In this document: positions 45,285-46,023 of the stretch, in pieces
How the letters are laid out: the number at the start of each line of letters is the position of its first letter
Numbering within the stretch: position 1 is the stretch's first letter
Source: Eledone cirrhosa
Lineage: Eukaryota
Direction of reading: 5' to 3'
Assembly (NCBI GenBank): GCA_964016885.1
Contig: OZ024746.1
Span: 54,746,001 to 54,810,000 of the forward strand
DNA length: 64,000 nt
Made by a program: the position numbers and the translations under genes
Notes under the pieces: model-generated
Databases searched by the model: none
What the model saw: the letters and a program-made list of their open reading frames with translations, nothing else
Told to the model about the DNA's origin: nothing

Positions 45285-45332
45285 TATATACTTTCCTTAT
45301 GAAAATTAACGGCTGAGCAGCCTAATTTGCAT
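45285..45332 (-). promoter_or_regulatory. Putative snRNA-type promoter cassette (octamer + PSE-like + TATA)
   Basis: ATGCAAAT-16 nt-TAATTTTCATAAGGAAAG-TATATA, conserved with family A. Confidence 0.5.
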
Positions 45333-45975
45333 ATCGAATGAGTTCAGTAGGCCAGGCGCACCGAAAAAGATAAATGGAATAGAATGAAACTAAATTTCAT
45401 TTCTCACTCTTAGTACGGCACTTATTTAAATGTAAGTATGTATGTATACGAAAAAAAAGGTGACGTGGTTGCCTAAACACTGTACGGATTAATTCAGGTT
45501 GTTTGTTTGTTTACAAACGAACAAACCGAGCATTATAATAAATGTTCGGTAAACTTATACGTGCATATATATATGTGTGCCTGTATGTATATATATATAC
45601 ATGCTACTGTACGTCTGTATACATATATATATGTACGTATACATACATACTTACATTTAAGTAAGTGAATAGAGGAAAGGTGTTTCCTCGAAAACCAGTA
45701 TGACTCTAAAAACCGGTTTGTCTGTGTGTTTACATACAGAATAGCTGGACACTCACAGTAAAGTGTCCAGTGAAAAACTCGGTACATCTACATATGTACA
45801 CGTGTGTGTATTCATATGCATACTAGTATTTCAGTATACATATGTGGATGTGCATTTTTAACTTAATTGTTTAAGCGTCAGTCATACAAAAGTGAGTTAC
45901 AAACGAAACGAAACTTAATTTCGTTTCGTTATTTGTTTTTATCGTCTCCGCTGAACCGGTACGTACTCACGCTCT

Positions 45976-46023
45976 ATGCAAATTAGTCTGCCCACTACTA
46001 ATTTTCATAGAAAAAGCATATAA
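45976..46023 (+). promoter_or_regulatory. Putative snRNA-type promoter cassette (repeated at 46441-46488)
   Basis: ATGCAAAT-15 nt-TAATTTTCATAGAAAAAG-CATATAA, about 25 nt upstream of the start of the extended ribozyme stem I. Confidence 0.5.

Follow-up and report, generated by a model that had tools for sequence, protein, structure and literature searches.

The non-LTR retrozymes of animals are described, in the portions of the two sources available to us, as non-coding repeats made of short tandem units, each holding a single type I hammerhead, with a self-paired fold, thousands of dispersed copies and a proposed Penelope-like partner (PMC7229834; bioRxiv 10.64898/2026.07.22.740005). The repeats reported here resemble them in all these respects and differ in that a host snRNA-type promoter can be identified in their units, which measure 310–465 bp. 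In the text that was searched, neither source treats the transcription of animal retrozymes; the word "promoter" occurs twice in PMC7229834 (both T7) and never in bioRxiv 10.64898/2026.07.22.740005. Newt satellite 2, according to the accessible parts of PMC2220036 and PMC6765202, is also a hammerhead tandem repeat with an internal snRNA-type promoter, a short stem III and cleavage as a dimer, and its promoter is cited as Pol II. Compared by description, our repeats differ from it in that they occur in an invertebrate-type genome, form several families, carry a box that matches host Pol III genes, and have a TATA. The newt promoter reportedly includes an octamer. The schistosome alpha repeats resemble ours in that cleavage leaves the promoter at the 3′ end of the monomer, and tandem copies are therefore needed to propagate them; they are described as SINE-like Pol III elements, whereas the promoter considered here is of the upstream snRNA type (PMC6765202, in part). 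The same portion of that source already presents promoter, tandem array and ribozyme as working together in the schistosome and newt repeats (PMC6765202).

Two further systems are relevant. Penelope-like elements share with our repeats 5′ truncation, partial tandems, an inverted 5′ copy and a tail on one end (PMC8557442), as well as (TA)n targets, a hammerhead and fixed initiation near a stem-loop (PMC8557442, PMC11167929); one of them reportedly initiates internally, at a stem-loop, and uses AT-rich targets (PMC11167929), all as given in the parts of these papers that we could consult. Families A and B differ from them in lacking an ORF and in having a tail of about 70 nt, and the coding elements examined in this genome are without the cassette described below. 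Type 3 (U6/H1) promoters have in common with our repeats an upstream box, here matched to the host, and a TATA, and one of our families (G) fits three modules in about 85 bp; the A/B arrangement differs in a spacing 5 bp shorter than that of the host U6 type, in having no distal element and in its location inside a mobile unit.

The window, that is, the whole stretch of 64,000 nucleotides analyzed, corresponds to positions 54746001–54810000 of contig C6 in an animal genome of 3.0 Gb that gives an octopus-like impression, and the positions below are those of the window, in which AT microsatellites are abundant. The preliminary description had claimed that repeat families A (+ strand) and B (− strand) keep a series of motifs in the same order and at similar spacing upstream of their hammerheads, and we found every motif in its place, in two complete copies of A and in B. 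In A, a hairpin (45902–45930) is followed by ATGCAAATTAG at 45976, TAATTTTCATA at 45999 (15 nt beyond the octamer), CATATAAC at 46017 and the hammerhead core at 46076–46106; the second copy repeats the octamer, middle motif and hammerhead at 46441, 46464 and 46540. In B, the octamer is at 45332, the middle motif at 45308 (16 nt after the octamer), TATATA at 45290–45285 and the core at 45244–45214. The composite insertion that contains both families has the following features:

44980–46871, no strand assigned: composite Penelope-type insertion in a (TA)n tract, with a B arm (−), an inverted B arm (+), a switch to A and 2.6 A units (+)
44980–45449, − strand: family B arm of about one unit, terminating at the "short" 3′ end
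45209–45249, − strand: B type I hammerhead, core 45244–45214, cut predicted to follow GUA at 45214, ACUAGU palindrome in stem III (motif search and inspection; no Rfam match listed)
45285–45290, − strand: B TATA box, octamer start 42 bp away
45298–45308, − strand: B middle motif, earlier called "PSE", which pairs back with the octamer box
45312–45316, − strand: B TCAGC, 26 bp before the TATA, like the host U1/U2/U4/U5/U12 YCAG element
45322–45333, − strand: B T-ATGCAAAT-TAG box, same pattern as the host U6/U6atac/MRP proximal box
45382–45403, − strand: B tail hairpin (GAAATGAAA...TTTCATT), marking the "long" 3′ end
45449–45666, + strand: inverted, 5′-truncated B arm, directly continuous with family A
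45667–46871, + strand: tandem array of family A with 2.6 copies (98% alike) of a 465-bp unit, terminating at the "long" 3′ end
45855–45859, + strand: A T5 run, potential Pol III stop; second T5 at 45936–45940
45902–45930, + strand: A tail hairpin; copies at 46367–46395 and 46831–46859
45975–45986, + strand: A T-ATGCAAAT-TAG box; copy 2 at 46440–46451 reads ...CAG
45999–46009, + strand: A middle motif, 3′ arm of a hairpin (45974–46010) with the octamer box
46017–46024, + strand: A TATA-like box CATATAAC, 41 bp from the octamer start, within a hairpin; copy 2 at 46482
46045–46050, + strand: A start predicted at TATA + 30, where the extended stem I of the hammerhead has its 5′ end; placed from the host TATA at −30 and the fold
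46069–46113, + strand: A hammerhead of type I, cut predicted to follow GUC at 46106 (Rfam HH9, 33.7 bits, E 3.5e-6); copy 2 core 46540–46570

Judged by their sequence, A and B belong to the non-LTR retrozymes, being tandem repeats with a type I hammerhead and a Penelope-type insertion anatomy. Their short non-coding units (465 bp in A, about 442 bp in B) are joined head to tail, and motif search and inspection identified in each a hammerhead core of type I whose stem III is minimal and palindromic. The head-to-tail join was present in four of four runs (contigs of unrecorded kind), and arrays of about 30 units exist on contig C1. Rfam HH9 scored 33.7 and 30.8 bits on A, below its gathering score of 52, and B was not listed; at the gathering threshold, Rfam gave no match in the whole window. 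The two families had been considered hard to align outside the cassette; this view was not sustained, since whole units align at 53% identity, with 60–68% in the 25-column bins of the cassette and up to 68–72% in other bins. A and B are accordingly one homologous lineage, and the cassette common to both therefore counts as one event. The cassette pattern (octamer-NAG-N11–16-TAATTTTCATA) had 17,458 exact matches in the genome and its reversed control none, so that it is not a product of chance; the first 100 matches listed were all of A or B type. One of 33 listed variants fell inside the 50-nt cassette against about 3.6 expected, which is too few to use.

Five distinct host Pol III promoters (three of U6, one of U6atac and one of MRP) carry a proximal box, T-ATG[CG][AT]AAT[TG]AG, at −76 to −78, together with a TATA at −30. 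Near-identical array members were counted once; among 15 U6 loci, six with the box displaced by an insertion and two without it were set aside, as were five of six U6atac loci, which have no box and resemble retrocopies. The host Pol II snRNA genes (U1, U2, U4, U5, U12) showed YCAG[TC] at −55 to −58 in 16/16 distinct upstream sequences, most have a TATA near −30, with the YCAG 25–28 bp before it, and the octamer box near −77 was absent from those examined. A distal element, TTAYCTCCCTT, was detected at about −245 to −290 in 13 of the 14 host promoters scanned (up to three mismatches); it was also present at U12, at one of three U4, at three of six SRP loci and at none of seven U5 loci. This element and a TATA near −30 are common to host Pol II and Pol III snRNA genes. 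Some units of a U6 tandem cluster on contig C19 have an insertion between box/TATA and gene. Host snRNA arrays and these repeats also lie close together in places: an A array adjoins a U1 array, and a B fragment sits inside an SRP array.

Comparison with these promoters showed that A and B match the host Pol III box at 12/12 positions, which chance produced in 68 and 95 per 100,000 simulated units. The likeness of the cassette to host promoters that had been anticipated holds for the octamer-TAG, which corresponds to the U6/U6atac/MRP box at about −77, and fails for RNase P and U1, which are without the box. The RNase P gene has a U1-type AAATCAGT element 32 bp before its TATA and no U6-type box. 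The proposal of an external snRNA-type promoter inside the unit is supported by the U6/U6atac/MRP match and by the retention of the box in further families. The distance from box to TATA is 41 bp in A and 42 bp in B, against 46–48 bp in the host U6 type; RNase P and SRP, host genes without the box, provide no donor with a spacing of 41–43 bp, and the distance from the AG core to the TATA in A and B does not fit U1/U2 either. With up to two mismatches allowed, the distal element does not occur on the sense strand of either family, and the A TATA begins with C. Since A and B thus depart from the host U6 type in two features, spacing and distal element, their cassette was not classified as a U6-type promoter, although it likely works like one. 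A YCAG occurs 26–27 bp before the TATA in B, D and I, in keeping with all 16 host Pol II snRNA promoters, and A and C are without it; the scores at the YCAG position were 4.3 bits in B, 7.4 in D, 8.2 in I, 2.3–2.6 in G, −0.4 in A, −0.5 in C and 0.7 in E. With all elements combined, Pol II-type scores reached up to 11.7, against 15–23 for host genes.

The middle motif TAATTTTCATA had been taken for a PSE, and this identification must be abandoned: no host promoter has such a motif, which is the reverse complement of the octamer plus flanks (with one mismatch in A and two in B) and pairs with it, and in an older B subfamily it is kept in 1/23 units. According to the folding analysis, the octamer and the middle motif form a hairpin in both families and the A TATA sits in a further hairpin; structure alone could therefore help to keep both box and TATA. 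In the older B subfamily the octamer is retained in 19 of the 23 units and the AG has become GG (ATGCAAATTGG) in 12 of the 23, and family D has spread with ...CAG after the octamer, so that only the octamer ATGCAAAT is invariant.

The genome was also searched with a box-plus-hammerhead pattern excluding A and B, which gave 113 matches (none in the control). The 50 of these loci that were retrieved, together with A and B, gave two singletons and six groups between which blastn found no link at E<1e-5 (A; B/D/I; C; E; F; G), which points to at least six hammerhead-repeat groups with host snRNA-type boxes inside the unit. The tandem periods of about 323 in C and about 310 in G show that the promoter lies inside the unit. 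When C, D, E and G were searched with the body only, leaving the promoter out of the query, the box was found upstream in 15/18 copies of C, 13/19 of D, 13/27 of E and 12/29 of G; the C and D copies without it look 5′-truncated. The box-to-TATA spacing is 43 bp in C and D, 42 bp in G and 47 bp in E and F, the only families with the host U6 spacing, and E scores 27.6 bits on the host Pol III model (25–28 for the host training genes). In family G, the distal element TTAYCTCCCTT is found 33 bp upstream in 8 of 29 unselected loci, seven of them at the expected place. The combination of G-type distal element and box occurred 20 times in the genome and 0 times in the control, in 19 cases at a distance of exactly 33 bp; seven of the 20 belong to one duplicated segment and 13 have a hammerhead core downstream. 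The cassette is not required by all hammerhead repeats: in the one such family tested for this, H, the box was present in none of the top 30 loci by Rfam RF00163, and it was also absent from the Penelope-type ORF ends examined. Family H is frequent, forms inverted arms in TA tracts, has RF00163 as its best match and lacks the cassette. In family D, a block of about 27 bp consisting of the octamer plus ATCAG is repeated several times upstream and shares stretches of 10–11 bases with two host U2 proximal elements.

The ends of A were mapped at 30 loci (49 arms) found through the promoter and hammerhead region. The 3′ ends fall at two fixed sites in 45 of the 48 readable cases (25 long, 20 short). 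The 5′ ends, 49 in all, are spread between positions 9 and 456 and do not cluster where the start or the cut is predicted. Inverted pairs combine one long and one short end in 15 of 17 cases, and nearly all A and B ends listed adjoin (TA)n. Both families therefore show the features of Penelope-like mobilization, namely 5′ truncation, an inverted arm, a one-sided tail and a microsatellite target. The long end carries about 70 extra nt that include the GAAAYGAAA hairpin; it follows that this hairpin, which had been assigned to the promoter, is a 3′ insertion tail. The expectation that templates hold promoter and hammerhead together was borne out in 43/49 A arms, and 46/49 span the cut site, both counts being biased upward because the loci were found via that region. 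The junction of B and A within 44980–46871 presumably arose by a template switch, which would imply machinery shared by both families. A tail-only piece of family A lies between TA tracts at 29314–29352 (− strand), and its junction is unique in the genome.

No autonomous partner with the same tail or cassette was found among 18 Penelope-type ORF ends of the loci examined, nor an RT/GIY-YIG partner at 20 tail-hairpin loci, both small samples, and a pattern search with tail variants returned only the older B subfamily. ORFs near B copies were considered as candidates and discarded, since TA tracts separate them from the B copies.

Taken together, the host match and the spread among families make it probable, in our judgment, that the octamer box and TATA of each A/B unit are a captured snRNA-type promoter that keeps the repeat propagating. 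Transcription would start about 30 bp after the TATA, near 46047, and continue into the next unit. Each hammerhead, likely as a dimer, would cut once per unit, leaving a 465-nt A monomer with the promoter of the next unit at its 3′ end; ligation would likely close this monomer into a circle. A Penelope-like reverse transcriptase acting in trans would then start at the fixed tail sites and insert more than one unit at (TA)n, which would place the promoter again in front of a hammerhead. Stem I was also considered as a marker of the start and rejected: the extended stem of A begins at TATA+30, but those of B and C begin upstream of that point.

For the propagating transcript, we lean towards Pol II or a dual Pol II/III promoter over Pol III alone, since this transcript has to pass through runs of oligo-T, at which Pol III terminates. 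The YCAG of B, D and I at the U1/U2 distance from the TATA also counts towards Pol II or dual use, though A and C are without it and all combined scores stay under those of host genes. In type 3 promoters, the spacing of the elements is important. Dual Pol II/III use has been reported for the human H1 promoter in the available text of PMC7949045. The captured promoter could also be a type 3, U6-like promoter used by Pol III alone, in which minority read-through of oligo-T gives the propagating monomer. The box is present at host Pol III genes but at none of the Pol II genes examined, E and F have exactly the U6 spacing, the long 3′ end of A coincides with a T5 run, and a schistosome repeat is reported as Pol III in the part of PMC6765202 consulted. 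However, each A unit has two T5 runs, all 21 E copies with a core have at least T4 within 60 nt after it (13 have at least T5), the spacing of A, B, C, D and G is 3–7 bp below that of U6, and the long end of B is not at a T run; we consider Pol III alone rather unlikely.

A different view is that an E/G-like ancestor captured the promoter, which persists in A and B only as self-paired RNA, with transcription by read-through from host genes or neighboring elements. Hairpins enclose the box and TATA in A, B and C, A and B have lost the distal element and the host spacing, and A, the youngest family (copies 97–100% alike), has the weakest TATA. Against this, the octamer persists in D, E, F and G, where the sequence that it would pair with has changed or is missing, the mismatch position moves in B2 while the octamer stays, and pure pairing would permit compensatory change in the octamer, of which none was seen; such a relic therefore seems unlikely to us. 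Octamers are common regulatory sites. That the octamer is a generic POU-factor site or a protein-binding RNA motif aiding expression or packaging, its host likeness being partly coincidence, would agree with the invariance of ATGCAAAT alone and with the repeated octamers of family D, but a lone octamer would not be expected to produce three host modules in order in G and the exact U6 geometry in E, which makes this reading quite improbable.

Returning to the captured promoter, a broader and speculative scenario, which we regard as doubtful in its entirety, is that a retrozyme superfamily captured a complete host snRNA promoter (distal element, octamer box and TATA) and compacted it, and that in the young lineages, which are the most successful, box and TATA moved closer together by half a helical turn. 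This would have replaced Pol III by Pol II, allowing transcripts to run through oligo-T and to give self-cleaving circles that carry the promoter with them, in convergence with the newt and with intermediate stages surviving as fossil families in one genome. The openly available main texts covered by the literature search describe this kind of promoter in such repeats only for newt and schistosome. Within that scope, the apparent capture of three host modules (distal element, octamer box and TATA) by multiple families, with two spacings, would be new. Host snRNA promoter modules inside the unit are a proposed answer to how animal retrozymes are transcribed, and the families form a natural series in spacing (47 versus 41–43) and module content. 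Retrotransposition normally costs an element its upstream promoter, and the repeat architecture found here would retain one. The repeats, present in over 17,000 copies, could also act as competitors for snRNA transcription factors, and the comparison defines host U6-type and U1-type promoter elements that may be useful for small-RNA expression tools.

Other elements were observed in the window. A Penelope-type element at 34958–39410 (+ strand) encodes a frameshifted RT and a GIY-YIG domain (PF01541, E 5e-4); it has an inverted 5′ repeat, a minimal hammerhead and long and short ends in (TA)n, is without the octamer cassette, and may be Neptune-like to judge from one motif. A second Penelope-type fragment at 56519–57661 (− strand) has an open frame of 379 aa with no Pfam hit and a 96% identical copy at another genome locus. 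Broken reverse transcriptase fragments, presumably of the LINE type to judge from their motifs, lie at 8269–10195, 51630–55201 and 59960–61665.
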